Below, one piece after another: positions 35,790 through 59,900 of a stretch of 64,000 nucleotides of DNA. Each line of letters begins with the position of its first letter. The first letter of the stretch is position 1. Origin of the DNA: Escherichia coli (GTDB taxonomy: Bacteria; Pseudomonadota; Gammaproteobacteria; Enterobacterales; Enterobacteriaceae); assembly GCF_011045215.1 (NCBI RefSeq), contig NZ_CP049201.1; one strand, 5' to 3'. A program made the translations under genes and the position numbers. A model generated the notes under the pieces. It worked only from the letters and a program-made list of their open reading frames with translations. It did not search any database and was not told where the DNA came from.

Positions 35790-36844
35790 TTACCCGTTAC
35801 CGGAAACAGCTTCCGTATATTAATTTTTACCGCTTCTGTCAGTTACTGGAACAAAGCCAGCCAGACCAGCCTCCCATTGGCAGTGGCTGGCAGGCCCGTC
35901 AGGAAGCGGTTCGCTTTTGTCCATACCCGGGAATGGGGTTTCCTGCGAGTGAAATAAAAGACGCTGTAATTCCTGAAGAATCCCATCTGCCACCCACTGT
36001 ACATGTGACGTTTATGGGACTTTACGGGGTCACGTCTCCGTTGCCGGCACACTATATCAGTGATATTGCACAGCAGCGGGAAGGCCATGAGGCGGCAGCG
36101 GATTTTCTCGATATATTCAGTCATCGTCTGATCACCCAGTATTACCGTATCTGGCGCAAATATTCGTACCCGGCCACCTTTGAGGCGGGAGGGCAGGATA
36201 AAACGTCTCAGTATCTGCTCGGTCTGGCTAGGCTGGGGATCCCCGGATGTGCACAGAATATTGCCACGCCGGTATCGCGTTTTCTGGCGTTATTGCCCCT
36301 GATGTTGTTACCCGGAAGAACAGCTGAAGGGCTGACATCACTGGTAACGCTACTAGCTCCCGGAACACAGGCCCGTGTCTGGCATCATGACCGACGACGG
36401 ATCCCGCTGAAAACACCGCTGACCATGCGTGTTCATCATCCGGTCAGTCTGAAGAGTCGCCCGGTGATGGGCGATCATGCCACGGATGTGAACGGACAGG
36501 TGTTATTACAGCTTTCAACACAGACGGGCAGCGAGGTACAGGGCTGGTTACCGGGCGGGCAGCTGTATTCTGATTTGCTGGCGTTGTTGCACGTTTATCT
36601 GGGAAGCCGTCTGGATGTACGTCTGCAACTTTGTGTTGAGCGTTCACTGTTACCAGATGCCCGGCTCAGTTGCCGGCCGGCAGCCGGTAGTCCGCAACTG
36701 GGGCGCACGGCAGTAATGAGAACACAGGCAAAGATAACGAATTCAGCGGCACGCGTCATGACCATCAGTCTGGGGCGTTATCAGCGGGTTCAGGAACATT
36801 ATCAACGTAAGGAGACTCAGGAAAATGGCGATTATCGCTGGTAA
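35744..36844 (+). CDS. tssG: T6SS baseplate protein TssG
   Basis: 366 aa immediately after tssF with overlap; start codon uncertain. Confidence 0.78.
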   Translation: MHPVERKSQSAPARLITRYRKQLPYINFYRFCQLLEQSQPDQPPIGSGWQARQEAVRFCPYPGMGFPASEIKDAVIPEESHLPPTVHVTFMGLYGVTSPLPAHYISDIAQQREGHEAAADFLDIFSHRLITQYYRIWRKYSYPATFEAGGQDKTSQYLLGLARLGIPGCAQNIATPVSRFLALLPLMLLPGRTAEGLTSLVTLLAPGTQARVWHHDRRRIPLKTPLTMRVHHPVSLKSRPVMGDHATDVNGQVLLQLSTQTGSEVQGWLPGGQLYSDLLALLHVYLGSRLDVRLQLCVERSLLPDARLSCRPAAGSPQLGRTAVMRTQAKITNSAARVMTISLGRYQRVQEHYQRKETQENGDYRW

Positions 36845-37361
36845 GGCTGGTTACGGTCTGATTATTGCGTTGTTTTCCCTGTCGTTATCAGGGTGCGGTC
36901 TGACGCAAAGAGTGGCAGACGGTACGGTATCTGCCACGAAATCCCTGTTTTACCGACAGATAAAAACACTTCACCTGGATATTCGTGCAAGGGAGGCCAT
37001 TAACACCAGTGCTGCCGGTATTCCCCTGTCGGTTGTGGTGCGGATTTATCAGCTTAAAGACAACCGGAATTTTGACAGTGCGGATTATCAGGCGCTTTTT
37101 ACGGGGGACAATGAAATTCTGGCAGGCGATATCATTGCACAGAAAGATGTATGGCTGCAGCCAGGAGGTTCAGTAGCCGTGGATATGCCCCTGGATGATG
37201 CGGCGAAATTTACCGGTGTGGCAGCAATGTTTCTGGAGCCTGACCGGAAGAAAAATACCTGGCGGGTGGTGCTGAGCCGGGATGAGCTTGAGCCGGACAC
37301 GCCCCGTCTTATTGAAGTATCCGGTAACACCCTGACGCTGTTACCGGTGAAGGATAAATAG
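36825..37361 (+). CDS. tssJ: T6SS outer-membrane lipoprotein TssJ
   Basis: 178 aa with lipobox LSLSGCGL; position before tssE. Confidence 0.72.
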   Translation: MAIIAGKAGYGLIIALFSLSLSGCGLTQRVADGTVSATKSLFYRQIKTLHLDIRAREAINTSAAGIPLSVVVRIYQLKDNRNFDSADYQALFTGDNEILAGDIIAQKDVWLQPGGSVAVDMPLDDAAKFTGVAAMFLEPDRKKNTWRVVLSRDELEPDTPRLIEVSGNTLTLLPVKDK

Positions 37362-37363
37362 CG

Positions 37364-37795
37364 ATGCCGCGTCCTTCCCTTTATGAAATTCTCTATGGCA
37401 ATTTCGCTGGCGGGCTGGAGTTAAATCAGGTCGGTGAGGAAGAGCAGGTTATTCTTTCGGTGCTCGATAACATGCAGCGTATTCTGAATACCCGGGCCGG
37501 AAGCCTTAAACATCTGCCGGATTATGGTCTGCCGGATATAACAACCATTCTGCAGGGAATGCCGGGGACGGCGCATCAACTGATGCGCGTGCTTTCAGAT
37601 GTTCTGCTGAAGTATGAGCCACGTATTAAGCGTGTCGACGTGACGATGCAGGAACAGACTCAGCCAGGTGAGTTGCATTATGTCATTGATGCAGAACTTA
37701 AAGATGCAGGGCTGGTTCGCTACGGAACAACATTTATGCCGGAGGGCAGGGTGTTGTTGCGCCATCTGAAACAGCAGCGGTACGTTCAGACGTGA
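37364..37795 (+). CDS. tssE: T6SS baseplate protein TssE (gp25-like)
   Basis: 143 aa; SLYEILYGNF...ILSVLDNMQRILNTRAGS... matches the gp25/TssE family pattern. Confidence 0.8.
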   Translation: MPRPSLYEILYGNFAGGLELNQVGEEEQVILSVLDNMQRILNTRAGSLKHLPDYGLPDITTILQGMPGTAHQLMRVLSDVLLKYEPRIKRVDVTMQEQTQPGELHYVIDAELKDAGLVRYGTTFMPEGRVLLRHLKQQRYVQT

Positions 37796-37951
37796 GCCGG
37801 AGCAGGGAGGGCAAAACAGAAATTAATAAACAGTGATGGATATATGTCAGGTGTGAATGTGACATTATACTGGCTTATGACAACACTGGCTGAATGTTTC
37901 ATCATCCTGATAACTCTGGCATATCAACAATAACAATGTATGAGTTTTTAA

Positions 37952-38353
37952 ATGAAGAAAATTATCTGTTTTCTGTTCGTGGGGCTTTTATTTTCGGTTC
38001 AGGCAGATGCTGCGCGGGGAAGAAAACCCTGCTCGGGTGCTAAAGGTGGTATTTCACACTGCACGTCAGACGGACGTTTTGTCTGCAATGACGGAAGTCT
38101 GAGTCAGTCGAAGCGCTTTTGTTCCGGTTATGGCGTGGCACCCGACAAACGTCAGGTGGAATCACCGGTCACCACGAAGCCGGTTCAGAAGAAAAAATCA
38201 GCGGCTGTCCGGAAGGTGTCACAACCGTCGGTGGCCGGGAAAAATGAGGTTGTACCGGTCACTGAACCCCGTAAACCCACCTGTGCGCCGCTTTATATGG
38301 CCAGCAAACCTGGATTTACACATCTGCCCATTTGTTCCGGTAATCAGTATTAA
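37952..38353 (+). CDS. Secreted Cys-containing small protein (signal peptide)
   Basis: 133 aa; signal peptide MKKIICFLFVGLLFSVQADA; mature part has Cys-containing Gly-rich N-terminal segment and Lys-rich middle. Confidence 0.5.
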   Translation: MKKIICFLFVGLLFSVQADAARGRKPCSGAKGGISHCTSDGRFVCNDGSLSQSKRFCSGYGVAPDKRQVESPVTTKPVQKKKSAAVRKVSQPSVAGKNEVVPVTEPRKPTCAPLYMASKPGFTHLPICSGNQY

Positions 38354-38508
38354 TCTGACACTGAAATAGCAGAGAAATCTGTGCTCAGCCTGCAGTTAAT
38401 TCTGTACTGGTGGGCATCATAAAGCCGGACAGCCTTCCGGGTATAAATATTTCCGGAGGGCGTTAATCAAAGATATTCAGTTACTGAGAAGGAAAATAAA
38501 GGAAAGTC

Positions 38509-39752
38509 ATGGCAGGAAGAAAAAAAGATGATAATGCAGCGGGATTTGTTCTGATTTTAGTTTGCGTTATTCTCTGGGGGATTTATGTGGCGGTCAGGGC
38601 GCTGATAAATCTTAATGAGCGCTTTATTGATGCAGTATCGAATCCGGCAGGTATTATTGGTTTGTTTTTGGGTTTGCTTACTGTATTTGCAATTTTACTT
38701 CGTTTTTTTATTTACCGGAGACTCAGAAAGAAAACAGCAGCCTTTGAGCAGGCCGTTTCAGAGCTGGTTCAGAGAGAACGGGGTTTTAATGAAACTGTCA
38801 ATGCCGCGATAGCCCGGGGAATACGACAGGAAAAGGAGCAACTAGCCAGACGTCGTGAGGATTTCATACCGCCAGACAGAAGGCCAGCCGTGCAATGCAA
38901 CGGATTGTTGATTCCGCTTGGAAATTTAAGGCGAAGACTCTGCTGGCTGGTGTAACGATTAATAACTGGCAAAGCAAATATGACCAGCTTCGTAAGGAAA
39001 GAGAGGCTTACGCTGCTGTCAGTGAGAAAATTGCCTTTCTTAACCTGGAAGATAATTCTGACTGGGAGAGTGTCAGGCAACAGTTTCTGGACAAAGTGGC
39101 GTTGCTGGAAAAAGCGCAGGAAGAAAAGGAATATCAGGCAGAGCTTAAGCGTCAGATGCGTGAAGAAAAAGAGCGTCAGGATGAACTTGACCGGCGCCAG
39201 CGGGAAGCGGAAGAGGAAGAGCGGCGTCTTGCCGAGCAGCAGAAACTGATTGAAGAGGCGCTGCGTGCCGCAGAAGGGGCTCACAGGGAGGAGCTGGAGA
39301 AACAACGCCTGGCGCTGGAACAGAAAATTCAGGAAGCGCATGCGCAGTACGAACGTGCTAAATCCATGGCTCAGCTTACGAAACAGGGGCATGTTTATAT
39401 CATTTCGAATATTGGTTCGTTTGGTGAGGATGTCTTTAAAATTGGCATGACCCGACGGCTGGAACCCATGGACAGGGTCAAAGAGTTAAGTGGTGCTTCT
39501 GTTCCGTTTGATTTTGATGTTCACGCCATGATTTCCTGTGATGATGCGCCTGCGCTGGAAAAAACACTTCATGACAGTCTGGAAAAATACCGCATTAACA
39601 GGATTAACCTGCGTAAAGAATTTTTCCGCGTGAAGCTTGAGAAAATCATTAATGAAGTGGAGCGTCACCACGGGCAGGTGGAATATGTGGCTGACCCGGC
39701 GGCGCTGCAGTACCTGCAGAGTCTGGAGTGCGCGGAAAATGAAGCTGCCTGA
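38509..39752 (+). pseudogene. Membrane-anchored coiled-coil protein with C-terminal T5orf172/GIY-YIG-like domain (DUF4041-type), frameshifted as given
   Basis: ORF 38509..38955 (two TM helices then helical region) and ORF 38895..39752 (coiled coil then GHVYIISNIGSFGEDVFKIGMTRRLEPMDRVKEL...FDFDVHAMI) are adjacent, overlap, and lie in different frames; both frames read as natural protein up to the 38860..38900 interval. Confidence 0.6.
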
Positions 39753-39944
39753 CAATCAGTGTTCTGATTTTATTCCGGCCGGATATAACAGAAGGGATAT
39801 CTGCACATATCCTGCAGCATGGTTCACGGTATTCCGGTCATGTTAATGATTCTGTTTTTTATTTCTGAATAAAACGACACCCACGATATAACGTCGTGGG
39901 TGTCGGTGGTGATTATTTTTTTGTTCACAGATTAAGGTGCGTTT

Positions 39945-41732
<1,788 letters not shown>

Positions 41733-41797
41733 TACCGGATTATTTCTTTATTCCGGGCTTTCACCATACTGTTATTATCAGGTTTATTTAATTCGCC

Positions 41798-42103
41798 ATG
41801 AACCCGTTATTTAACGATATTCAGATGCGTCTTTTTTATCTGAACCACTCTCCGTACTCCTGGCACTGGAATGTCAGATTCAGACCTCAGGAAGCCGTAT
41901 ATATTGGCAACGATACCTGTCATATCACCATTACCTGTAATCAGTCAGGTTTTCATTTAACCCGGGACGGACAACGGCTGTTCACTGAGCGTTATATCAG
42001 AAACCTTAATGAGCTGTTACCGGTTCTGAAACGGCGGTGGGATGTGACACCGGCAATCATCCGTGCAGTGGAATACCTTTCCCGGGTCCCGGTATCACAC
42101 TGA
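41798..42103 (+). CDS. Hypothetical protein (101 aa)
   Basis: ORF only; no recognisable motif. Confidence 0.3.
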   Translation: MNPLFNDIQMRLFYLNHSPYSWHWNVRFRPQEAVYIGNDTCHITITCNQSGFHLTRDGQRLFTERYIRNLNELLPVLKRRWDVTPAIIRAVEYLSRVPVSH

Positions 42104-42157
42104 CATTCTTTCCGTAACTGTTAATCATGATTTAATACAGCAACACTGAATCTGCCG

Positions 42158-43522
42158 ATGACTTCTGAAGTGAAACTGAAAACCGGTGGTGACCCCCGGT
42201 CATTACCGGATTATACTGCCCTACGTGATGAAATCAGCAAACTGACCCACCCGGCACGCCCGGATGTGGACTGGCGTTATGTGGAAACACTCTGCCTGCG
42301 TCTGTATGAACACAATGGCGTGGAATTACAGACGGCATCCTGGTACACCATCGCCCGGATGCATACAGCAGGGTTAAGTGGCCTGAATGAAGGGCTGGCT
42401 CTGATTGTGGCGCTGACCCGGCATCACTGGTCAGTGATGTGGCCGCTGAATACCCACGCCCGGCTGGAAATTATTACCGGTCTGTTCAACCGTCTGCAAA
42501 AAACGCTCCGGGCCATGCCACCGGATAACCGTGACAACCTGCCTCAGCTGTATCAGACCGAAACATTCCTGAAGGTACTGAGTGACATATTTATCCGACA
42601 TGAGCTGAAGCAAAACAGCCGGCTGGTGTTACTGGAAAACATGGTGAAGGGATATATCATTCGTCTGGAGAATCAGCCTTTACAGGGGGATGATTCGTCC
42701 CCGGTAACGCTTCCTGCTCAGGCACTCCGGTCTGATGCACCGGATGTGCAGGAACATCAGACCCTGCCGCACTCCCGTCTGGTGTATATTGTTTCTGAAA
42801 CAAAAGCAGAACCCTCCCCCTCCCTTCAAAAGTCTTCACCCACGTTTCTGAAACCGTTTGTGGCTGGTGTCTGTGCGGCATTGCTGGCTGTCAGCATGGC
42901 CATTCCGGGATGGCAGTTTCTGACACAGCCATCACCGGCGGAGCAGCAACTCAGGGCGCTGCTGACCCCCCCACCGGATGTGCTTTCAGCAGACCAGATG
43001 ACACAGCTCAGCAGAATACCCTCACTGTTAAATCATGTGTCAGAGTGGATACCCCTTTCCGGTCAGCAGATAACGCGACTGACAGAACTACCGCCGGCAT
43101 ACAACCTGCAACGCAGTGCGCAGCTGCTGCAGCAACTGATGGTGCTTTTTCCCGATAATCCCCGTGTCCAGGAAATGGTGGATAACTGGCAGAAGAGTGT
43201 AATGAGCCGTGCGCTCCCGGAAGAGGCGATGACGGGCTGGAACGAAGGTATGACCCGCTTACAGCAGCTGGCTGAGCGCCTGAACCGTCTGGATGAACAG
43301 CGGGGAAAATACATAACGGTCAGTGAACTGAAAACGGAGGTGTTTGGCATCATGCAGGCTTTTAACCGGCATATCCCGGCAGAAGAGCAGTTACGTCGCT
43401 ATGGCGAAGCCCGCAACCAGAATGGCAGTGAACAGCAGCAAAAACAGGCTGAAATGGCGCTGAATCAGTTGATTAACCGTTATCAGATGGAACACACAGG
43501 CAATCAGGAGGGGCAGCCATAA
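42158..43522 (+). CDS. ImpA_N-domain protein (TssA-related, TagA/VasL-like) with internal TM helix
   Basis: 454 aa; N-terminal GGDPRSLPDYTALRDEISKL...PDVDWRYVETLCLRLYEHNGVELQTASWYTIARMHTAGLSGLNEGL matches the ImpA-related N-terminal domain; hydrophobic segment FVAGVCAALLAVSMAIPGW mid-protein. Confidence 0.65.
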   Translation: MTSEVKLKTGGDPRSLPDYTALRDEISKLTHPARPDVDWRYVETLCLRLYEHNGVELQTASWYTIARMHTAGLSGLNEGLALIVALTRHHWSVMWPLNTHARLEIITGLFNRLQKTLRAMPPDNRDNLPQLYQTETFLKVLSDIFIRHELKQNSRLVLLENMVKGYIIRLENQPLQGDDSSPVTLPAQALRSDAPDVQEHQTLPHSRLVYIVSETKAEPSPSLQKSSPTFLKPFVAGVCAALLAVSMAIPGWQFLTQPSPAEQQLRALLTPPPDVLSADQMTQLSRIPSLLNHVSEWIPLSGQQITRLTELPPAYNLQRSAQLLQQLMVLFPDNPRVQEMVDNWQKSVMSRALPEEAMTGWNEGMTRLQQLAERLNRLDEQRGKYITVSELKTEVFGIMQAFNRHIPAEEQLRRYGEARNQNGSEQQQKQAEMALNQLINRYQMEHTGNQEGQP

Positions 43523-43846
43523 TGGCTGATTAGATAGGGTAATGTAAAATAATGCAACAATAACGTTTACACAATAAGGTGTAAGCTGAAATTAACTCGT
43601 TCGTGGAATAACCTAATGAGTAAGGTTCTGCTACTTTGAGTTGGATAAGTTATATAGAACAGCAGTCCTGATAGTCAGAAAGAGTTTTTTCTGGGGTGTA
43701 TTTTTATAGGGTGTTAATCTGGTATTTAATTAAAAGACGGAGTTATTTATACTGACATATCAAATAAATAATTTTTAACGACTTTTCTATTTGGCTGATT
43801 GTTTTGCGTTCTTTTTATAAGGTGTTTTATTTTTAAAGGTTTTTTG

Positions 43847-45662
43847 ATGAGATTACATAGTCTTAAAATAAAAGGATTTAAACGTATCCAAACTGCAAGA
43901 GATAATATTTGGTGATACCACGTTTCTCATTGGTGCTAATAATGCCGGTAAAAGTTCTGTTCTGAAGGCCGTTGAATGGCTGCTTTCAGATAAAAAGAAG
44001 ATGGATATTGACTTTTTTTATTGTGAATCTGATGAATCACGTGAAAATAAAATAGCAACTGAGTCAATTGTACTCGAGGCTGAATTCAGAAATGTACCGG
44101 AAGAGGCATTGCAATGGAGAGGTTTTAGGGGGAGGATATTTGAATATAATGCTGGAAATAGTGGGGAAACGGGAAAGTCTCTGATTTACAGGAAAACATA
44201 TGAACCGGGGAATGATGTTGTTATTGAATTGAAATCTTTTTCAAGAAAATTGAATACACGATTTGAAACCGCAGTCAGAGCATCTGACTTGGTAGAAGCT
44301 GGTGCTGATGCCGAAATCATCACTGAGTATTTTCCAGATCAAGCTAAAAGATTTAATGCAGCTGACAAAGAAAAATTAAAACTCATTGATGAATTATGGG
44401 ATATTTCTGATGATGAAGAAGTTTGGGATAAAAACCCGGGGGGAATTGCAGGTGTTGTGTTATCCCGATTACCTGCTTTTCTATTAATACCAGCAGAATC
44501 AGCTTCTCATGAAATTGACACAAAAGCGGGAGCTTTGCAGAAAACGCTGAATGAACTATTCAAAGATGTTCGTGGCAATTCAGAAAATTATAGAAAGGCC
44601 CAGGAGTCTCTGAATGCGCTTGCGAAGGAATTAGATCCTGCAGATGAAACGTCAGAATTTGGTGTGATGATGGGAGAACTTAACAGTGTATTAAGCGGAG
44701 TTTTTCCAGAGTCAAAGATATATGCTACGGCTGATTTATCTGATCCTGATAATGTTCTCCTACCTTCATTTTCGGTTGAAATGTCGAGTAACATTAAAAC
44801 ATGTGTATCGAATCAAGGAACCGGAATGATTCGAGCAGCTGTATTTGGATTGTTGAGATTTCGGCAGCAATGGCTGAGAAAAAAAGGTAAGGATGATGCT
44901 GCTACCAGAAGTCTTATTATTGGATTTGAAGAACCAGAAATTTATTTACACCCTAGTGCAGCAAACCAGATGAGAGATTTGATTTATGAATTATCAGATG
45001 GACAGTCACAAATAATAGCGACAACACATTCACCTTATTTGATTGATTTGTCGAGAAAACCCCGACAGGTACTTAACCGATTCCATTATGATAATTCACA
45101 TACGACAGTCTACCCGCTCTCAGTGACAGAGAAATTTCTGGCCTTGCAGGATAATGATAAAGATCAGATAAAAATGCTGATTAAGCTGGATGATCATGTA
45201 TCAAGGATCTTTTTTACCCGAAAAGTTGTTGTTGTCGAGGGAGATACAGAGGAAGTCATTATCAAAGAAGCTATCCGCAGAATGCCAAAAGCAATGCGAA
45301 ATAAGTTGCTTGCATCAACAGAGCTGGTTAAAGCACGTGGCAAGGCTGCGATTATCGGCCTGGTGAAGTATCTTAGCGCGCTGGATGTTGATTTTTTTGT
45401 TATCCATGATCGTGATGGCGGAACTCCCGGTGCGGAGATCTTTAATGCGCCGATTGCTGCTGCTGTTGGGGATGCCAGCAAAGTTATCATGCTGGAAGAG
45501 TGTATTGAGGATCTGCTGGGGTACCCAGCTCCAAGTGGTGAAAAACCGTTTAAGGCGTATCAGGAAGCACAGCGCTGGGGAGATAACTGGAATGACGTGC
45601 CTGAACCATTAAGGAGAATACTGACTAGAGCTTTTTCCCCATTTATCGATTTGGCTGAATGA
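43847..45662 (+). pseudogene. OLD-family ATP-dependent endonuclease (ABC-type ATPase plus Toprim), N-terminal frameshift as given
   Basis: ATG at 43847 encodes MRLHSLKIKGFKRIQTARDNI then TGA at 43913; shifting frame at 43908..43913 gives FGDTTFLIGANNAGKSSVLKAVEWLL (Walker A) continuous with the 44001..45662 ORF; downstream TTHSPYLIDLS and Toprim-like VVVVEGDTEE...FFVIHDRDGG. Confidence 0.75.
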
Positions 45663-46077
45663 GCAAAAGGGAAAAACTCTGATAAGTAGAGAGTTGAAGA
45701 TGAGCGCTTGGTGCATTGCCAGCACTCTTTTGATTGAAGATCTTTATTTCAGTGAAAGTGGTGCCTGGTTTGCCTTGCCTAAACGTATCATAAAGTCGGC
45801 ACACCATACCTGATGCTGCTATGCGATGTTCCTGCTGGATGTGATGTCGGAAAGAAAGGCGGAATATTACTGCAATAAGGTAGCAGTCCATATCAGACGC
45901 GGGCCTTTCATGATGAACAGGAGAATAACTTGAGTTGCCGGGAATTGCCGCGGCCATACGACATAATCGGGCCAGAGGAAAACACCAGATGGCCTCAATA
46001 TCTGACATTGTCAGAGACCTTTCGCGGCTCGGCTGGACGGATGAACGCATTGGCACTGAGCGGGGCAAGTGCTAAGG

Positions 46078-46135
46078 CTGAAACAGATTAGCGGGCTGAC
46101 GGGCCTGTTTCAGGAAGAGGATTTCAGCCCGGCAT
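46078..46135 (+). repeat. Diverged copy of the gene tail seen at 1..74 (26-codon fragment)
   Basis: CTGAAACAGATTAGCGGGCTGACGG-CTGTTTCAGGAAGA--ATTTCAG shared with 3..53; reads ...LKQISGLTGLFQEEDFSPA then TAG; in-frame TGA just upstream, so not an intact gene. Confidence 0.5.
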
Positions 46136-46181
46136 AGACGCTTCGCTGATACTGTTATTGTTATTTCAGTGAGTTGATGTT

Positions 46182-46511
46182 TTGAGCAGGAAAAAGAGTA
46201 CCCTGGAAGTTGTGGAAGACAAGGTTGCACAGAAACTGGAGGCTGCAGGTTACTGGCGCAGAGCTTCTGCCCGCTGGTTATTTGTTATGGGCAATTTTGA
46301 ATGTACAGAAGCACAAGGGGAGTGGTTGTTGTTACGCAGGAATTATTGCCTGACGCAGATATCGTCCCCGCCGCTACCTGAAAAGCTGGATATCAGCGAA
46401 GTGGTAAAAGCTGCAGATGCCACGCTGAGGCGAATGGGGATTGCCAGCCCGTCCGGAGAGGTATTCAGAAAAGGTATATTGACCTGTAGATATTCAGATA
46501 ACAGGTATTGA
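46182..46511 (+). CDS. Small regulator-like protein, possibly PerC-family
   Basis: 109 aa; KLEAAGYWRRASARWLFVM...RRNYCL resembles the PerC-family pattern (from recall; low certainty). Confidence 0.4.
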   Translation: MSRKKSTLEVVEDKVAQKLEAAGYWRRASARWLFVMGNFECTEAQGEWLLLRRNYCLTQISSPPLPEKLDISEVVKAADATLRRMGIASPSGEVFRKGILTCRYSDNRY

Positions 46512-47128
46512 TGATGAATAAAGGAAGTATATCAATGACATGGCAGCTTTTATGCGATGAACATGGTTTTACCCGGGAACATTACAGTGAACTGAAGAAA
46601 TTCAGTCCGGAGGTATTACATGAAATTATTGTTGAAATGGCCTGCTGCCATCCATCAACCAGTGTATTGCTCAGGAATAAGTGGCTGACACCGCCGGAGG
46701 ATATTCTGGGGCAGGTTACCCGTGAATACGAACGAAGAATACAGAACTGTCCATCTTTCAGGAGCGAGAAGGAGGTGGAGTCCTGGTTAAATGAACTGTT
46801 TTTTGCTGTGATTGCTCCGCTATACCGTGTTGCTCCCGGACAAACAGAACAGGCTGAATCCTTTATTCTGCAGCTTATTGCGGAGCAGGTTTGGGGACTT
46901 ATTTTAACCAATGATGGTTATTCATGGCATTGTGCCCTTTATGACATGTTATTCTGTCTTGTTTTACGAAACACGAAAGGCCAGCCTGAATATCTGAGAA
47001 AACGAATAACGGAAATAATTAATGAATCTGATATAAGACTGACTGTAGACGAAATTGAATGCCAGATTCAGTATGTTCAGGATAATGAACAAAAGGTGGT
47101 TTTACGTGAGTTGATAAATAATTTGTAA
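46508..47128 (+). CDS. Hypothetical protein (206 aa)
   Basis: ORF overlapping the upstream stop; no recognisable motif. Confidence 0.4.
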   Translation: MMMNKGSISMTWQLLCDEHGFTREHYSELKKFSPEVLHEIIVEMACCHPSTSVLLRNKWLTPPEDILGQVTREYERRIQNCPSFRSEKEVESWLNELFFAVIAPLYRVAPGQTEQAESFILQLIAEQVWGLILTNDGYSWHCALYDMLFCLVLRNTKGQPEYLRKRITEIINESDIRLTVDEIECQIQYVQDNEQKVVLRELINNL

Positions 47129-47168
47129 TGGACGGGGCATACAATAATTCATGTAAGACCATGGAGAA

Positions 47169-47417
47169 ATGAAAGTGAATATGTTCCTTAAGTATCATGA
47201 TGTAATGTCCACCCTGAAAGGCCGACACCAACATTTTGACAGATTATACAGTCAGTATTGTTCGCTTGAACGCCAGATAGCCAGACTTGAAACTGATTTT
47301 GGAGGAGGATATTCCATGAAAGTCGTGATACTCAAACTTGAGAGACTTGATGTGAAACGGGAGTTACAGACGCTTCTTGAAGAAGAAGCAAAACACTTAA
47401 GGCAGGGACTTAAATAA
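47169..47417 (+). CDS. Hypothetical small protein (82 aa)
   Basis: ORF only. Confidence 0.3.
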   Translation: MKVNMFLKYHDVMSTLKGRHQHFDRLYSQYCSLERQIARLETDFGGGYSMKVVILKLERLDVKRELQTLLEEEAKHLRQGLK

Positions 47418-47450
47418 CGTTTTCTTAACAGGAAAAGCGAACTGTTCTTA

Positions 47451-48086
47451 TTGTCGGAGAATGTTATGCGTATTCCATCTTGCAAAGAACCCGGTGAAGG
47501 ACATGTAATACAGGCACTGCGTCAGGCGTATGCCGATAATCCCCGGATATTACCGGGAGACTTATGTGCAAAATTCGACGTATCTGTGTCAACAATGAAA
47601 CGCTGGCTGGCCATGCCAGAGAATGACGTTCAGGCGCTCGTTAATGAAGAAGTGCGGGATATGGCTACTGTTGATGAGGTTATTGAACATTTCTGTCCGA
47701 ACGGACGGGATATACCAGACACGCAGCGTAGATGGCGGCTGTATCAGATTATGCGTGCACTGGAGGACAAGGGCTGGAACAGGATAAAAATTGCCCGTTA
47801 TCTCGGGCTGAATCGGGGGACAGCCCGGTATTATCTTTCAATGTCCGAAGATGAAGTGCAGCGCATCCGGGATATTGCTGAAGGGCGACTGATTATCAAC
47901 GTACGGCGGACAAAAAAACCACTGAAGAAATCAGAACTTCTGGAAATTATTGATGCGCAGAACAAGCTACCAACAATAACACGACCACAGATTTGCGAAG
48001 TTACGGGCCTGAGTATGTCCCGGCTCATGCGGTATCTGGCGTTAAGTCCTGCAGACCGTGAGGCCCTGCTTACTGGTAATAAGTAG
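47451..48086 (+). CDS. Hypothetical DNA-binding protein (HTH-like segments)
   Basis: 211 aa; putative HTH segments CAKFDVSVSTMKRWL and IARYLGLNRGTARYYL. Confidence 0.4.
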   Translation: MSENVMRIPSCKEPGEGHVIQALRQAYADNPRILPGDLCAKFDVSVSTMKRWLAMPENDVQALVNEEVRDMATVDEVIEHFCPNGRDIPDTQRRWRLYQIMRALEDKGWNRIKIARYLGLNRGTARYYLSMSEDEVQRIRDIAEGRLIINVRRTKKPLKKSELLEIIDAQNKLPTITRPQICEVTGLSMSRLMRYLALSPADREALLTGNK

Positions 48087-48306
48087 CCCACAGATGACAA
48101 CCAGTACATTTACAATGTGTGGCGTTTCCGGAGGGTAATGATAAACCGCTTAATCTCCGGAGCGAGAAAACATCACGCTGACCATCTGATATTCATGGGG
48201 TGGGGAAAATCGTGCATTTTGGTTTTGTTAATTTCCGGGAGACAGGGCATTGATTTCCGGGGGAGATTAAACAAATCTTAATCAAAGAAACAGTTGGAGA
48301 TATGTC

Positions 48307-48555
48307 GTGATTTTTTTCATCAAGCTTTTAGTATGTTCCTGTATTTTTTGTGTATCTGCTTATTTTCTTGTCGGTGGAATGGTGTCGTTTATCATATGCA
48401 TTACGACAGGGAATTTTTTAATTCCGGACGGGCAGGTGGTGAGAAGTATTATATGGGGGTGTATTACGGGGGCGGTAATTACATTTATTGTAATGTTTTT
48501 TAATCTGATGGACAGACTCAGTTCCCGTAAAAAAACACGGTCAGATTATGAGTGA
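48307..48555 (+). CDS. Hypothetical small membrane protein
   Basis: 82 aa with two hydrophobic helices; AT-rich. Confidence 0.3.
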   Translation: MIFFIKLLVCSCIFCVSAYFLVGGMVSFIICITTGNFLIPDGQVVRSIIWGCITGAVITFIVMFFNLMDRLSSRKKTRSDYE

Positions 48556-48816
48556 AATTTCCGCTGGTATAACAAACAGGGTTATGGATATTCTCGTTTA
48601 TGTGGAACATTCAGTTTGTATCGGAACTGGTAAGAACCTGACAGTTACATTCCCAATGTTTTATGGGGCTTCGGGGATATATATAATAGTTTATTGATAC
48701 ATGTTCTGTAGTTATACTGCGTATTCCGCTCTATTCGATCACGGATTTGCATCGAAGTCCGATCAGCGATTCGCATACTTTCGATCAACCGGGAACTTAA
48801 CTTTTTCTACCGCTTT

Positions 48817-49572
48817 TTAACTCGTTTTTTCGATGCTTTCCACTACCGGGGGGTTTTTCCTCAGGGACTCTCCCTGAAGGACCAGTCTGTGTGAGTTATG
48901 TACCAGTCTGTCCAGGATGGCATCTGCTGTTGTTGGGTTCTCCATCAGACCATGCCATTTATCTACCGGGAACTGGCTTACCACTATCGTGCTGCTTTGA
49001 CCGTAACGATCTTCTATGAGCTCCAGAAGGTCATTACACTGGGCGTTACTTAACTGTTCCAGCCCCAGATCGTCCAGGATTAGAACCTGTATTTTTTGCA
49101 ACTGTTTCAGATATTTCAGCCAGCTGCCATCAACACGTCCCTGAGCCAGTTGTTCCAGTAATCGCCCGGTTCTACAGTACCGGACGCTGTGTTTCTGTCG
49201 ACATGCCTGTTCGCCCAGCGCATTGGCTATCCAGCTCTTGCCACATCCTGTCGGACCGGTTATCAGCAGGTTTTTCCTGTGGGTTATGTAGTGGCCGTTC
49301 AGCAGTTCCCTCATCTGTTCAGCCCGCAGACCTCTTGAGGCCGGATAGCGCAGCCCTTCCGGTGTTGCCTGATATTTCAGGCCGGCATTTTTTCTCAACC
49401 GTGCCACACGGCTGTTTTCCCTGCTCAGAAGCTCGTCATCAACCAGCAGCGTCAGCCTTTCCTCGAACGACAGTTCGTCGTAGGTCTGAGGCGTTTCCCG
49501 CTGCCGTATCAGGCTCCCGGCCATCGCCGGGAGTTTCAGTTGGGTCAGTTTGTTTAACAGATTATCACTCAT
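48817..49572 (-). CDS. istB: IS21 helper ATPase IstB
   Basis: Start at ATG giving MSDNLLNKLTQ; Walker A GPTGCGKS and Walker B VLILDDLG; the ORF-track N-terminal extension is judged spurious. Confidence 0.85.
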   Translation of the reverse strand: MSDNLLNKLTQLKLPAMAGSLIRQRETPQTYDELSFEERLTLLVDDELLSRENSRVARLRKNAGLKYQATPEGLRYPASRGLRAEQMRELLNGHYITHRKNLLITGPTGCGKSWIANALGEQACRQKHSVRYCRTGRLLEQLAQGRVDGSWLKYLKQLQKIQVLILDDLGLEQLSNAQCNDLLELIEDRYGQSSTIVVSQFPVDKWHGLMENPTTADAILDRLVHNSHRLVLQGESLRKNPPVVESIEKTS

Positions 49573-49588
49573 TCGGTTGTTCCTTCTG

Positions 49589-51235
49589 TCAGTGGTAGTA
49601 GCCAGGACCACGCAGGTTTTCATGCTCTGAAGCATATGCCGGATGTTGTTCGCCCTGGCGGGATAACGGAAGCTCAACGTTATCCCGATGATGACGCAGC
49701 AGATTGTCGATAAAGCGTCTGTCCGGGGCGTTATAGTGCAGGGCAACGTAACAGGCCTTTTCCAGCCGTTCCGGGCCGTATTTTTTCTGAAGTGCCAGCA
49801 GACCCAGGACTGCACGGTAAGCCAGCTCCGGATGGGGTTTGGCTTTCAGCATGGATTCAACCACCCGGCCTGTGGACGGACCTGTACGGTTTCCCTGCTC
49901 GATAAGGCGTTCCGGTGTCCATGTCCCATGCCGCCGGTGGCGTTCTGGCATGTGAAGCGGATTGGTTGTGTGTTTATATTCATGTGTGCTGCGCGGATGT
50001 TGCGCCACACACTGCCCCTTGTGCCAGAGTTGTACCACCGACTGCCCCGCCTTCAGTGACAGACGCTGACCGACCAGTTCGTGTGGAACGGAGTACCAGT
50101 GACGGGCATATTCAACGTGATAGTCAGGGCCAACCTTCACGGCTTTGTATTCCGTGTATTCATAAGGTGCCAGAGGCAGCGGAGAGAGTGCTGGCGCATC
50201 CAGTATGCGGAAGCGTTCTGCACGGGTTTGATTGCCGTACCCCTTCATTGGCCGGTTATTCATGTCTGTCAGTAACTCCCGAAGGCGCGCATTCAGCGCC
50301 CTGAGCGTGTGGAAGGTTTCATTACGGATGCGGGCAAGAAGCCATCGTTCGACGATGAGGACGCCGTTTTCTGCTTTTGGTTTATCTTTAGGTTTGCGTG
50401 GTCGGGCCGGGATAATAACCGTGCCATAGTGCTCAGCCAGCGCCTGATAACTGTCGTTGATGACAGGCTCATAGCGATCGGCTTTTTTCACTGCGCTTCT
50501 GAGGTTATCGGGGATGAGCAGCTTCGGTACGCCGCCCAGGAAGGTCAGGCAACGGCTGTGGGCATTTAACCATGACATCATGTCCTGACCTTCGCACGCT
50601 TCAACATAGGTATAGTTGGACGCCCCCATTACAGCCACGAAGATTGCCACGCGGCGTATCTCTCCGGTGTCCGGATTAATAACAGGGACCGTAGGACCAC
50701 AGAAGTCGATAAAGAGCTTTTCGCCAGCACGATGCTCCTGTCGCATGGAGAGGCGTCGCGTTTTTTTCCACTTCCGGTAGCAACGGCAGAAGTGTGAGTA
50801 TCCCATCGCTTTGTCACCCGCCTGTGCCTTGTATTCCATCCACAACAGTTGGCGCGTCACGCCAGGTTTTCTCATTTCCGTATCGAAGTACAGCATGTCA
50901 GGCATAACAAGCTCCGACGCAGAGGTGTCTTTGGGCGGGTAAATGAGTTTCTCCAGCGTGTCATGGGATATATCAGCAGGTAATGGCCATGACAGAGAAG
51001 AGGCTTTGAAGCGTGCAAGAACCTCAAAAACGGTTGAGGCGCTGATGTGTAATGTCAGCCCGATACAACGGTTAGTCAGCTTCTGGTCGAACTTGAGCTG
51101 AAGGATCTTAAAACAGGTTTCCATAGTGCTCCTGGATTTTCTCTTTCTGGACATTGCCGTCTCCATTGGTTTAAACACGGCAATGAAGACTGTGGCGAAA
51201 AGAGTTAATTCCCGGAGTGACTGGCAGGATGCCAA
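49589..51235 (-). CDS. istA: IS21 transposase IstA
   Basis: 548-aa ORF upstream of and adjacent to istB; start codon uncertain within the first 40 codons. Confidence 0.85.
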   Translation of the reverse strand: MASCQSLRELTLFATVFIAVFKPMETAMSRKRKSRSTMETCFKILQLKFDQKLTNRCIGLTLHISASTVFEVLARFKASSLSWPLPADISHDTLEKLIYPPKDTSASELVMPDMLYFDTEMRKPGVTRQLLWMEYKAQAGDKAMGYSHFCRCYRKWKKTRRLSMRQEHRAGEKLFIDFCGPTVPVINPDTGEIRRVAIFVAVMGASNYTYVEACEGQDMMSWLNAHSRCLTFLGGVPKLLIPDNLRSAVKKADRYEPVINDSYQALAEHYGTVIIPARPRKPKDKPKAENGVLIVERWLLARIRNETFHTLRALNARLRELLTDMNNRPMKGYGNQTRAERFRILDAPALSPLPLAPYEYTEYKAVKVGPDYHVEYARHWYSVPHELVGQRLSLKAGQSVVQLWHKGQCVAQHPRSTHEYKHTTNPLHMPERHRRHGTWTPERLIEQGNRTGPSTGRVVESMLKAKPHPELAYRAVLGLLALQKKYGPERLEKACYVALHYNAPDRRFIDNLLRHHRDNVELPLSRQGEQHPAYASEHENLRGPGYYH

Positions 51236-51327
51236 TCAATGATCGGAAGCGTGCCAAATCGTGATCGATTGTGATGCCAAACTGTGATCGGAGATGGATG
51301 CCAAATCATGATCGATTCGAATGCCAA

Positions 51328-52817
51328 CATACCCTTACCCACAAGTTTTCTGGGCTATTTCTATGGCATTAATTGACAGCATTAATTGTGTTAATCCTGA
51401 CCATATAGTCTTAGGGCCTGGAGGCGAATCATTTTTTCTTGCCAGATATCCTCCTAATCTTGCAAGCATTAAAACCGCCGTTCTTATATTCGGTATGTTT
51501 TCAGGTGGAGGCGTATTCTCTACCAATATCCAGAGATACTCATATTCTTTCTTTTCGAAAATTAAATCACAGGGTTCCTCCGGAACCATTTTATACAATG
51601 AGCTAAGATAAAGTATTCTCCATGAGATTATAAGGTATAAGGCCAGACAGTTCCTTGTGCGTTCAAATGTCTCAAGTTGTAATTTCTCAACCTGACATCC
51701 GCTTTTTAATACCTTAAAGAAAACTTCAATCTGCCAGCGTAATAAATACCATTGAATAAGCTGTGCGGGTTCCGTCAGCTTTTCTGGAGGTACACTACTC
51801 ATTAGCCACCATACTAATGGCTGGACACTTTCTGGAGCATTTATTTCCTTTGCAAGTAATACAGTTACCGTTACCGGAGAACAACGTAACTTTCCTCTTC
51901 GACCGGTGGGTGGATGTAGCGTCAACCTTGCTAAGCGTAGCTCCTGCTGGACTTTGCGGGAAGGTTGTCCTCGTCCTTCCGGAAGGGTAAACTCAATTAT
52001 CTGCTGTGGCAAAATCTGCATCATTTTTTCATTCAGGAGTAATGAGTCTCTTTTTCCTGATGAATTCAGTATAGCCCGGTTAATGCTCTTCATTCTTACG
52101 AGCCAGTCAGCCTTTATCCCACTTTCATTTTCTGCACTCTCAAAGAGGTCGTAAATATCACCTTCACGGTCTGAAACAGAAATTATCTGGGTATCAGGAC
52201 AGGACCTAGCCAGTTCTGTTGCTTTTTTATATCCTTCTATCCACCGTCCTGTTTCTTTCTCACTGATATGTTTCCTGTGAAGTGAATCATTAGTTATTTC
52301 TTTACGACTTTGTTTCTGAGTTTTGAGTTCTTTTCTGAACCATTGATAATCATCATAAACCCCTAAGCAAATACCTGAATCACTTATAACCAATTGAGGG
52401 TGAATAAACAAATCTCGCTCATTTTCATGTCGTCTGGGACCGACGCCCTGTTTCTTTTTTTGACCAGAATAATTTAGTTCAGTCGTATCCTGTAAAACCA
52501 GAGCCCGTTTAAACTGTTTAGTCCTTTCGATGATATTTTTCTTATGGGGAGCCATGATTTTATCGGCTGAAATTTTATCACTGGAAAAGCAACGATAAGC
52601 AGCTTTTGTCTCACTCCAGGTACGGCAGGATACGGGAATACTTTCCTTTGGTGAACGGCTAAGCACACTGAGAACGTGCTTTATTCGCTTTTCGAGCCTG
52701 ATATCACCAACATTCAGAGATTCCAGCTCCTTAATAACCCAGTTTTCCATAGTTCCTCTAAATTATGGTTAATTTATCAACAGAATAACATCACTCGGAT
52801 TTATGGGTAAGGATATG
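51328..52817 (-). mobile_element. IS4-family (IS50-like) insertion sequence, copy B
   Basis: Inverted duplicate of 440..1929 with the same 14-bp terminal repeats and the same 9-bp flanking repeat (GAATGCCAA on this strand at 51319..51327 and 52818..52826). Confidence 0.75.
51335..52750 (-). CDS. IS4-family transposase (identical to 507..1922)
   Basis: Identical 471-aa translation to the copy at 507..1922. Confidence 0.85.
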   Translation of the reverse strand: MENWVIKELESLNVGDIRLEKRIKHVLSVLSRSPKESIPVSCRTWSETKAAYRCFSSDKISADKIMAPHKKNIIERTKQFKRALVLQDTTELNYSGQKKKQGVGPRRHENERDLFIHPQLVISDSGICLGVYDDYQWFRKELKTQKQSRKEITNDSLHRKHISEKETGRWIEGYKKATELARSCPDTQIISVSDREGDIYDLFESAENESGIKADWLVRMKSINRAILNSSGKRDSLLLNEKMMQILPQQIIEFTLPEGRGQPSRKVQQELRLARLTLHPPTGRRGKLRCSPVTVTVLLAKEINAPESVQPLVWWLMSSVPPEKLTEPAQLIQWYLLRWQIEVFFKVLKSGCQVEKLQLETFERTRNCLALYLIISWRILYLSSLYKMVPEEPCDLIFEKKEYEYLWILVENTPPPENIPNIRTAVLMLARLGGYLARKNDSPPGPKTIWSGLTQLMLSINAIEIAQKTCG

Positions 52818-53658
52818 GAATGCCAAACCGTGATCGATTCAGATGCCATTTTGCAGTTATACACTATTGAGTATTATATTGTTATGAAAATATCTGTACT
52901 TATGGAATATTTAATTCTGATGATGGGGCTCTGGTTTGTTGTATGGTTAATTACGGACTGGTTACCTCATATCTGACGGAAAGTGGTATCAGTGTGTATT
53001 CGCATTGACCGGACATCGACATATAACGAATTACGTTCCGGACAAAACTCTCCTGCAGGAAAGGGTAACATTGTATTTTAAACATATTATTCAACCAGTC
53101 ATAAGCATAAACCGACCGCCGTATGTAGCCATTAAGCCAGTATTGGTAACGAAGATACCCACCTTTTCAAAAAGGAAGTGGATAAAAGATAACGAAAATG
53201 CGAAGAGTTGATTAATACATTGAAACAAAATTCATTAATGATGAACTTGGAGAAAAGCTCCATCAAAATACGACACGACCTGTCGTAATTTGTGTTAGCC
53301 AGGAAAGAATATCTACTACTCACTAAAATGATTTAGTGCTGAAAATATTTACAAGCCAATAAATTGACTGGTATTACGGAGTAACGCCCAGGCTATGTTA
53401 ACGAACCCGCTGTTTTATTGGCTCAAAAAACATATCCCAGAGATGTTCAGCCATACCCTCGTTAGTGAGCAAGGTATCCCCTTAGTAGCCAGGGCTGAAG
53501 ATGCCCATTGATGGGCGAAAACCAAGGATCTGGCCGTTAGAACAGTTATGTCGTTAAACACATCACCACCATATGCCATCCGGTTCACTTCGTCGGCCAA
53601 ATTAGTGTGATATTCTTTCCAGAAATGCTGTTGTATCCACGACATAAGGCGATGATTG

Positions 53659-56600: not shown

Positions 56601-57072
56601 GCAGGTTCAGGGGGCACTGGAGCCGCTGTTCCAGCAAAATCCGGTGCTGAAGAAAATCCGCAACGGCGAGCCAGTCACGCAAAACGAGCTGGATGAACTG
56701 GCGAAGCTGGTGCTGATCCAGAACCCCAACGTTGATATCCGGGCACTGAAAGAGTTCTATCCGCAGGCAACCGCCAGCCTGGATAAACTTTTGCGTACCA
56801 TCATCGGGATGGACAGCGACGCGGTGGAAGTGCGCTTTGCTCAGTTCGCCGCTGATAACAGTCTGACCAGCCAACAACTGCGCTTCCTGTCATTGCTGAA
56901 AAACCACATTCGCGATTACGGCACCATTGAAATGCGGCAGCTCTTTGAACAGCCTTTTACGCATATCCACAACGAAGGCGTTACCGGTGTGTTCCCTGAT
57001 ATAGAGCAGATCGCCCGCCTGCAAAAGATAGTCGAAGAGCTGGGTGTTGTGACCGACGTAGCGACGGTATAA
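53659..57072 (+). pseudogene. hsdR: Type I restriction enzyme R subunit HsdR, interrupted by an in-frame TAG at 55615..55617
   Basis: ORFs 53656..55617 and 55720..57072 are in the same frame and the codons between them read on as HsdR (VIDNYDPRAEQLIDDFKGLDE...); helicase motifs QATGTGKT (Walker A), DESH, FWQMIGRGTRL present; likely a CAG to TAG change. Confidence 0.8.
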
Positions 57073-57135
57073 TACGCACATGACAAGCCCCGGCAGCGGG
57101 GCTTTTGTATTTAAAACAGGATATAAAAGCTAACA

Positions 57136-59894: not shown

Positions 59895-59900
59895 GTACAT

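Follow-up and report, generated by a model that had tools for sequence, protein, structure and literature searches.

The gene found immediately downstream of tssE in the window analysed here, a 64,000-nucleotide stretch of an Escherichia coli genome, encodes a long form of the YdcA protein, and this long form has a fixed and conserved place in the accessory block of type VI secretion systems (T6SS) of the Sci-1 type. The gene will be called ydcAL. Its product is predicted to be a Sec-exported, disulfide-bonded and basic periplasmic protein of about 12 kDa, and its N-terminal domain is homologous, by sequence and predicted fold, to the first lobe of Dis2, a peripheral subunit of the Legionella type IV secretion system (T4SS) known as Dot/Icm. 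The chances are about even that YdcAL serves as a periplasmic docking or tether protein for the trans-envelope machine encoded in its block. The YdcA family has already been named by RefSeq, where some copies are labelled 'YdcA family protein'; the long form, its place in the accessory block and the link to Dis2 are apparently new. A literature search combining YdcA with type VI secretion returned nothing relevant, and no description of these three features was found in the literature searched. YdcA has been an orphan E. coli family and Dis2 has been regarded as a Legionellales-specific T4SS subunit without relatives. The link would provide both with the working hypothesis of an outer-membrane-proximal docking module, for which E. 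coli and in particular EAEC constitute a tractable system.

The features of ydcAL and of its neighbourhood are collected in Table 1. This is clearly a real gene, far beyond a chance open reading frame, because 212 homologues are detected at E<=1e-3 and both conserved modules of the protein show a low dN/dS ratio. Its ribosome-binding site is weak (GAG, about 10 nt upstream of the start). The counterpart in E. coli 042 is EC042_RS24280 (WP_001403987.1), which from the gene order probably bears the locus tag EC042_4546. The N-terminus, MKKIICFLFVGLLFSVQADA followed by ARGRK, shows a positively charged n-region, then a hydrophobic core, and ends in an A-x-A site, and the junction of A-x-A with ARGR is kept in all the aligned long forms. 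The YdcAL sequence has no lipobox Cys at position +1 and is therefore predicted not to be a lipoprotein. The mature protein (113 aa) contains 6 Cys, 12 Lys and 7 Arg, with a pI of 9.9. A preliminary description of this DNA had placed an exported, Lys-rich, Cys-containing protein of 133 aa next to tssE and had considered that it could be periplasmic. The position, the length, the basic composition, the Cys residues and the exported character are borne out, and a periplasmic location is very likely. Two statements of this description need correction: the gap to tssE measures 156 nt and not 157 bp, and ydcAL does not follow the last T6SS gene, as an intact tagA lies further downstream.

Table 1. 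Features of ydcAL and of the surrounding genes (positions in the window).
Feature	Position	Strand	Remarks
tssJ	36825-37361	+	upstream T6SS gene
tssE	37364-37795	+	upstream T6SS gene, stop at 37795
tssE-ydcAL intergenic region, 156 nt	37796..37951	+	p156 absent here
ydcAL CDS, 133-aa long-form YdcA-family protein	37952..38353	+	ATG start; end coordinate counts the stop
Sec signal peptide, aa 1-20, MKKIICFLFVGLLFSVQADA	37952..38011	+	predicted cleavage after A-D-A (between ADA and AR)
YdcA/Dis2-lobe-like domain, aa 21-61	38012..38134	+	C27, C37, C45, C57; PCSGxKGGIxHC...FVCNDGSxSxSKRxC
Disordered basic K/T/P/Q-rich linker, aa 62-105 (~44 aa)	38135..38266	+	from alignment, pLDDT and dN/dS
C-terminal 2-Cys motif, aa 106-133	38267..38350	+	C111, C128; long forms only
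SNIPE/PD-lambda-1-like gene	38509..39752	+	2 TM helices, coiled coil/DUF4041 region, T5orf172 (GIY-YIG) nuclease domain
12-bp-stem hairpin (39875-39905), then CGGTGGTGAT and T-run	39875..39916	.	intergenic
NERD + UvrD-type helicase	39945..41732	+	RefSeq '3'-5' exonuclease'; PADLOC candidate C3a187; optional insert
p101, 101-aa ORF preceding tagA	41798..42103	+	function not assigned
Intact TagA-type gene, ImpA_N + VasL, 454 aa	42158..43522	+	the block's actual 3' T6SS gene

The locus corresponds to the Sci-1-type T6SS on the island of EAEC 042 in which tle1/tli1 are found. The genes tssG, tssJ and tssE precede ydcAL, and the intact tagA downstream places ydcAL inside the T6SS cluster. In related genomes tagA is labelled by RefSeq as pseudogene fragments; it was found by TBLASTN to be continuous in 042, E70 and RSHH22 as well as in the window, and an argument based on the survival of ydcAL beside a decaying tagA was dropped for this reason. 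Beyond tagA are found an OLD-family nuclease gene, IS elements and a type I restriction-modification system.

The synteny around ydcAL was investigated at loci obtained from exact-protein look-ups and from one scan of species-representative genomes. The order tssE-(p156)-ydcAL-SNIPE-like nuclease-(NERD helicase)-tagA/vasL, in which p156 is a 156-aa gene present between tssE and ydcAL in other genera, is conserved in at least 15 enterobacterial species, and 15-16 of the 19 species loci with a long form lie between tssE and vasL/tagA. In its full extent the order reads tssM-tssA-[variable PAAR/Ntox44 + DUF1240 slot]-tssF-tssG-tssJ-tssE-(156-aa ORF)-ydcAL-(414-aa T5orf172 gene)-[optional NERD helicase]-vasL/tagA. 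It can be observed in Klebsiella, Salmonella arizonae, Citrobacter, Pantoea, Yersinia and Serratia, and also in Pluralibacter, Huaxiibacter, Tenebrionibacter, Dryocola and others. TssF itself falls into two deep lineages (61% amino acid identity, dS ~1.6); this division is not followed by tssE, p156, ydcAL, the T5orf172 gene or vasL, and the 3' block is therefore common to both. ydcAL thus displays the conserved synteny across taxa by which T6SS accessory (Tag) genes are recognized. With Tag proteins of the EAEC Sci-1 system such as TagA (EC042_4550) and TagL, YdcAL shares a coding position in the accessory part of the cluster and a conserved synteny. TagA and TagL have demonstrated roles in type VI secretion, whereas a role of YdcAL is putative, and YdcAL bears no sequence relationship to either of them. 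The suggestion that this protein could be an unrelated secreted factor is consequently not quite right: the factor is secreted, by prediction, but its long form is conserved in the T6SS accessory block of these species.

Within E. coli the gene is rare, being present in 117 of 5,426 complete genomes, and about 129 E. coli genomes carry this tssE allele. Several rearrangements could be detected among these strains. ETEC strains have lost tssK to tssE and retain ydcAL; in some strains the T6SS core is replaced by a CDI locus and the segment from ydcAL through tagA is retained. In STEC1575, ydcAL, the nuclease gene and the helicase were lost together, with a breakpoint within the 3' end of tssE. 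In O104:H4 strains the nuclease gene is retained and ydcAL is missing, and in one strain an IS110 element is inserted in ydcAL. Natural T6SS clusters devoid of ydcAL do exist.

The position of the gene raises the question of immunity, which the preliminary description had considered in the form of a periplasmic or orphan immunity protein neutralizing an effector of sibling strains. YdcAL is indeed small, predicted to be periplasmic and encoded in a T6SS cluster, and many anti-envelope effectors are neutralized in the periplasm. No effector gene was nevertheless present beside ydcAL in any locus read, the neighbours being tssE (or p156) and the SNIPE-like gene, and the variable slots of these clusters are situated elsewhere: vgrG-tle1-tli1 in 042, and PAAR/Ntox44 + DUF1240 between tssA and tssF. 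Immunity proteins diversify with their toxins, whereas the modules of YdcAL are near-invariant across genera, with a dN/dS of at most 0.12 in spite of saturated dS. Moreover, YdcAL matches no immunity family in Pfam or NCBIfam, nor any in PADLOC, and members of the YdcA family abound in genomes and mobile elements that show no T6SS link. Since effector adjacency and diversification both fail, immunity is not supported and must be considered very improbable. The occurrence of homologues away from T6SS genes, which had been proposed as an argument against immunity, is only partly verified: it holds for the short forms and for three long forms, and the long form otherwise resides in the T6SS block of at least 15 species. 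A relationship with DUF3761 (PF12587) had also been put forward. Proteins of this family are small, secreted and Cys-containing, with a C-x-DG-x-x-S-x-S-like motif, and one UniRef record (P0091) names a YdcAL homologue 'DUF3761 domain-containing protein'. No Pfam match to this domain could be obtained, however, either with YdcAL at E<=1 or across 150 representatives of the family at E<=0.001.

Judged from its profile matches, YdcAL is instead a long-form member of the YdcA family (PF27300). It has no match in the local copy of Pfam-A, to which PF27300 is posterior; a precomputed PF27300 match is carried by every listed homologue, including those 95-99% identical to it. The NCBIfam model of E. 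coli YdcA (PRK10040/NF007462) matches residues 1-58 with an E of 1.9e-24, and PHROG 6000 (phrog_6000) is matched at 1.8e-19. The E. coli K-12 YdcA (57 aa) shares with YdcAL a signal peptide followed by PCSGxKGGIxHC...FVCNDGSxSxSKKxC, and the first 58 residues of YdcAL are 67% identical to it. YdcAL is not its equivalog, as indicated by a score below the NCBIfam equivalog cut-off (85.6 versus 118 bits), a length of 133 aa and an additional basic linker of ~44 aa and C-terminal 2-Cys motif, both missing from the short forms. Across the 150 representatives, the columns conserved at >=90% are P, C, S, K, G, G, C, C, G, S, S and C.

An exhaustive profile search showed that the family comprises about 360 clusters at 50% identity, mostly of 60-100 aa. 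The gene for YdcAL lies within a T6SS cluster, whereas no T6SS gene occurs less than ~10 kb away from the short E. coli-type copies that were read; in the loci read, short forms of about 57 aa were never near T6SS genes, whether K-12-type ydcA or the copies of Pasteurellaceae, Hydrogenophaga and Pectobacterium. Short copies are also present in Moraxella, Acinetobacter and Haemophilus temperate phages; in the Haemophilus phage HP2, an unannotated ydcA copy directly follows cI in the pL lysogeny operon. Many others reside on plasmids of Acinetobacter, Pantoea and Rhizobium, in cargo rather than transfer regions. A location of YdcA genes inside plasmid T4SS clusters was considered and rejected, the Acinetobacter copies lying in the cargo regions of phage-plasmids. 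Three long forms are found outside the T6SS block as well: in Ewingella, in a non-T6SS context beside an M23/DUF3289 protein; in Yersinia artesiana, in an integrase island; and in Trabulsiella, in a prophage, where a 186-aa ORF and then an SNase gene lie downstream. The function of K-12 ydcA is not established; its deletion confers sensitivity to 3-hydroxypropionate and the gene has been reported to be acid-induced (PMC7642389).

These observations would agree with YdcAL being a stand-alone periplasmic passenger, a generic small envelope protein comparable to chromosomal E. coli ydcA or to the 'moron' copies of phages and plasmids, inherited with the block and independent of both the T6SS and the nuclease. 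Its role might lie in the tolerance of envelope stress or acid, in superinfection exclusion or the like. The mostly short members without T6SS link, the phage and plasmid copies, the three displaced long forms and the phenotype and induction of K-12 ydcA all go in this direction, as does the persistence of ydcAL at loci deprived of the T6SS core or of the nuclease gene. Persistence without the core is not peculiar to ydcAL, because tagA too is retained in a strain with a replaced T6SS core. The long form with its C-terminal motif is confined to a few Enterobacterales clusters, and it occupies the same position, from tssE to the nuclease gene or tagA, in 15-16 of the 19 species loci with a long form and in both TssF lineages; hitch-hiking alone is therefore hard to sustain. 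A passenger is the main rival explanation, if a rather unlikely one. Even as a mere passenger, ydcAL would not deserve annotation as a T6SS immunity gene.

The alignment, the structure prediction and the selection analysis divide mature YdcAL into three parts. Pairwise dN/dS values amount to 0.00-0.06 for the N-domain (residues 20-61) and 0.01-0.12 for the C-motif (residues 106-133), compared with 0.24-0.47 for the linker, which evolves much faster than the modules flanking it; synonymous sites of ydcAL are saturated between E. coli and the other genera. Both modules are thus under strong purifying selection and the linker is free to vary. The linker sequence changes along the alignment, its length and its K/T/P/Q-rich composition being kept, and its pI is 10.1. 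The consensus of the C-motif is P-T-C-A-P-L-Y-M-A-x-K-P-G-[FY]-T-H-L-P-I-C-S-G-N-Q-Y. This motif is never separate from the YdcA domain: when it was sought without this domain, the sole candidates were frameshifted or truncated ORF calls. AlphaFold gave a pLDDT of 53 from 19 close homologues; with a deeper alignment, it rose to 78-94 for the N-domain, 55-61 for the linker and 65-75 for the C-motif.

Dis2 (Lpg0823) is the sole sequence match of YdcAL in the PDB (E 0.0056). The comparison of the mature-domain profile with the Dis2 family is far more significant (hhalign 94.5%, E 7.8e-8), and four Legionella Dis2 homologues carry Pfam YdcA matches. In a Foldseek search of 350,542 PDB chains with the predicted fold, Dis2 took the top two places (prob 0.51-0.54), with an rmsd of 1.5 A over 32 columns at 44% identity. 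A 37-column profile devoid of the signal peptide was ambiguous against the PDB, with Dis2 at an E of 0.026 and LDL-receptor repeats at 0.007-0.04; this ambiguity is resolved by the profile-profile comparison with the Dis2 family. In the resulting alignment, lobe 1 of Dis2 (CCSKMGGINYCDSSAGRLVCNNGFYS) matches the YdcA domain with the four Cys in register.

The two proteins are alike in being small, Sec-exported and disulfide-pinned, by prediction in the case of YdcAL. Dis2 consists nevertheless of two tandem lobes with five disulfides and has neither basic linker nor C-motif; YdcAL possesses a single YdcA lobe (4 Cys) and an unrelated 2-Cys C-motif. Dis2 belongs to a T4SS and not to a T6SS, and its link to a trans-envelope secretion machine is physical, that of YdcAL being by gene position only. 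Dis2 is encoded outside the dot/icm loci. Structural work on the Dot/Icm T4SS identified it as a 13-copy subunit of the outer-membrane cap, adjoining the outer membrane and contacting the lipoproteins DotK, DotC and DotD; the complex still assembles upon Dis2 deletion, the translocation of some substrates being subtly altered, and the protein was called Legionellales-specific by its authors (PMC8486379, PMC12716638).

On this model, the YdcA module of YdcAL would dock at an outer-membrane-proximal site, for instance on a lipoprotein or an OmpA-like component of the machine. The flexible basic tether of ~44 residues would link this module to the C-motif, whose Cys-loop may engage a second partner, and YdcAL would act as a peripheral and dispensable adaptor or stabilizer of the machine encoded in its block. 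The membrane complex TssJ-TssM-TagL is tentatively proposed as the most likely partner; a more doubtful alternative is the SNIPE-like nuclease encoded next door, an inner-membrane protein. The T6SS membrane complex is slightly the likelier of the two, given the precedent of Dis2 and the conserved gene order with tssJ, tssE and tagA, and the nuclease is supported by its tight pairing with ydcAL, by the nuclease theme of the family and by a conserved periplasmic loop described below.

The 414-aa T5orf172 protein encoded next to ydcAL matches the PADLOC model PD-Lambda-1 (E 5e-88). PD-lambda-1 was renamed SNIPE and is a GIY-YIG nuclease, anchored in the inner membrane, by which phage DNA is cleaved while it is being injected; the N-terminal region of SNIPE is variable and was termed 'adapter', and 7% of the homologues have two TM helices (bioRxiv 10.1101/2025.11.03.685801). 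The gene is frameshifted in the window by a 1-bp deletion at ~38861 and intact (414 aa) in 042, E66 and E70. The copies of the T6SS block are 95-98% identical across genera (dN/dS ~0.03-0.07), and the most conserved part of their N-terminus is the predicted periplasmic loop between the TM helices, with the strictly conserved sequence VRALINLNERFIxxVSNPAG. The two genes occur together in ~104-115 E. coli genomes and in most species loci. Their co-occurrence is not obligate, each gene persisting without the other: ydcAL remains intact at loci whose nuclease gene carries a frameshift, is degraded or is missing (the window and loci L013, L017, L019 and L025), and phage SNIPE homologues were found without a YdcA neighbour, as in phiP27, which has a SNIPE match and no YdcA match. 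SNIPE acts as a single gene, and PADLOC yields no match for ydcAL itself, nor for p156, p101 or TagA.

The proximity of this nuclease is also one ground for supposing that the basic YdcA module binds incoming DNA or positions nucleases at entry sites, YdcAL being here a cofactor of envelope nucleases. Among the 150 representatives, no recurrent fusion partners occur other than secreted nucleases (Endonuclease_NS in four, SNase in one), the Trabulsiella prophage copy precedes an SNase gene, ydcAL lies directly upstream of a gene of the GIY-YIG (SNIPE) type, and the mature protein is strongly basic. These fusions are however rare (5/150), and Dis2, the only relative whose structure has been solved, serves as a structural subunit and has no known DNA role. 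The nuclease domain of SNIPE is cytoplasmic, so that a periplasmic YdcAL cannot be its direct DNA-binding cofactor. A function directed towards nucleic acids appears quite improbable.

A bolder extension of the docking proposal, which we hold to be unlikely, would see in YdcAL the periplasmic arm of an anti-phage device that spans the envelope and consists of two parts, and in YdcA/Dis2 a general docking domain. The Dis2-like head would dock under the outer membrane, the tether would cross the periplasm and the C-terminal Cys-loop would bind the conserved loop of the SNIPE-like protein, so that outer-membrane events such as phage tail penetration could be coupled to the inner-membrane nuclease. 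Secretion machines, periplasmic nucleases and prophage exclusion genes might all have drawn on this outer-membrane-side domain. The 'accessory operon' of Sci-1, the best-studied E. coli T6SS, holds in any case a conserved protein, predicted to be periplasmic, and a SNIPE-type membrane nuclease, either of which could affect T6SS assembly or tie T6SS clusters to anti-phage defence.

The expression of ydcAL can be approached through published data on EAEC. EC042_4547 and EC042_4548 were described there as the 'accessory genes' of an 'accessory operon' with an ops2 (RfaH) element between them, and a reporter downstream of EC042_4548 drops in ops1, ops2 and rfaH mutants (bioRxiv 10.1101/2025.02.08.637259). 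This drop implies that transcription of the main T6SS operon reaches the accessory region, and ydcAL may be co-transcribed with the T6SS. No terminator-like site was found in the tssE-ydcAL intergenic region, and no Rfam match within 36500-44000. Two weak sigma-70-like sites (37844-37871 and 37877-37905) are not above the shuffled expectation; the first one overlaps the palindrome ATGTCA-N10-TGACAT. A conserved ydcAL promoter was sought by comparing intergenic regions, and those of E. coli do not align with those of other organisms. The ops2 element was reported for the intergenic region that holds the hairpin at 39875-39905 (bioRxiv 10.1101/2025.02.08.637259), and the sequence of this hairpin and of the CGGTGGTGAT that follows it is also present in 042.

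The T6SS clusters of the compared loci L003-L024 contain two deep lineages of TssF, TssG and TssJ, with TssF at 61% amino acid identity and a dS of ~1.6. The 3' block tssE-p156-ydcAL-nuclease-vasL, in which ydcAL is the 133-aa long-form YdcA-family gene, is common to both lineages, with dS values of 0.2-1.0. Judged from these sequences, the clusters are mosaic: two core lineages are associated with one common 3' block, an arrangement that implies recombination at or close to tssE. Some E. coli strains have a CDI locus, comprising cdiA and several orphan VENN-CT/immunity modules, in place of the T6SS core upstream of ydcAL (L040 1-9000; L041 1-7200), and keep the segment from ydcAL through tagA. 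E. coli and Pluralibacter lack the p156 ORF of the block; this ORF has no signal peptide and no match in Pfam, PADLOC or PHROG.

Features of the 3' block, the adjoining island and related loci (window coordinates unless a locus is named)
Feature	Position	Strand	Remarks
p156, conserved 156-aa ORF	L003 7408-7878 and equivalents		flanked by tssE and ydcAL in most genera
Palindrome ATGTCA-N10-TGACAT	37844-37865		upstream of ydcAL
SNIPE/PD-lambda-1-type membrane GIY-YIG nuclease gene	38509-39752	+	PADLOC E 5e-88
Perfect hairpin, 12-bp stem	39875-39916		between nuclease and helicase genes; CGACACCCACGA...TCGTGGGTGTCG, then CGGTGGTGAT and a T-run
tagA (ImpA_N+VasL, 454 aa)	42158-43522	+	uninterrupted ORF
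tagA in compared loci	L001 24364-25722; L044 15161-16534; L041 11415-12770
Defence and mobile-element island	44001-63182		directly after tagA
OLD-family AAA+TOPRIM nuclease	44001-45662		in island
IS21-type and Tn5/IS4-type transposase genes	48817-52750	-	in island
Type I R-M hsdR	53656-55617 + 55720-57072		appears split, two ORFs
Type I R-M hsdM	57136-58770		in island
Helicase, 1093 aa	59901-63182		in island
YdcA-like ORF, ~57 aa	Haemophilus phage HP2 (L042, NC_003315.1) 2495-2668	-	unannotated; 54% identical to aa 1-57

The SNIPE-like nuclease adjoining ydcAL has two TM helices and a predicted periplasmic loop that is strictly conserved. Intact proteins are 95-98% identical between genera (dN/dS ~0.03-0.07), a conservation that exceeds that of TssE, TssF and VasL in the cross-genus comparison and that, from these sequence values, is unusually high for a defence gene. 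The window copy carries a 1-bp deletion at ~38861 (GAGGAATTT -> GAGG-ATTT), which splits the gene into ORFs of 148 aa and 285 aa.

At the 3' end of the block, tagA is also continuous in strains 042, E70 and RSHH22 by tblastn. RefSeq/PGAP divides this gene into two to three pseudogene fragments ('ImpA N-terminal', 'POTRA' and 'VasL domain'), a labelling that looks like an annotation artefact. The island position 3' of tagA is occupied by Zorya type II in related genomes.

An ops2/RfaH element of EAEC has been reported in the same nuclease-helicase intergenic region (bioRxiv 10.1101/2025.02.08.637259). The hairpin located there looks like a terminator that would need to be overridden by RfaH; a sequence search of this region in the window and in 042 found no exact copy of GGTAGNNT. 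Two weak promoter-like sites precede ydcAL, and the palindrome overlaps the better one; this palindrome is kept in 042, is not alignable to other genera and is a putative operator.

YdcA-like genes are also encountered in phages and in nuclease fusions. The ORF of HP2, also carried by phage S2, directly follows cI and precedes orf1 and int within the pL lysogeny operon, by gene order the place of a lysogenic-conversion or exclusion gene. YdcA domains are fused N-terminally to secreted nucleases of the Endonuclease_NS or SNase type in the family representatives P0197, P0235, P0260, P0205 and P0223, and in a Trabulsiella prophage (L028 9995-11400) a 186-aa ORF and then an SNase gene come after a long-form ydcA.
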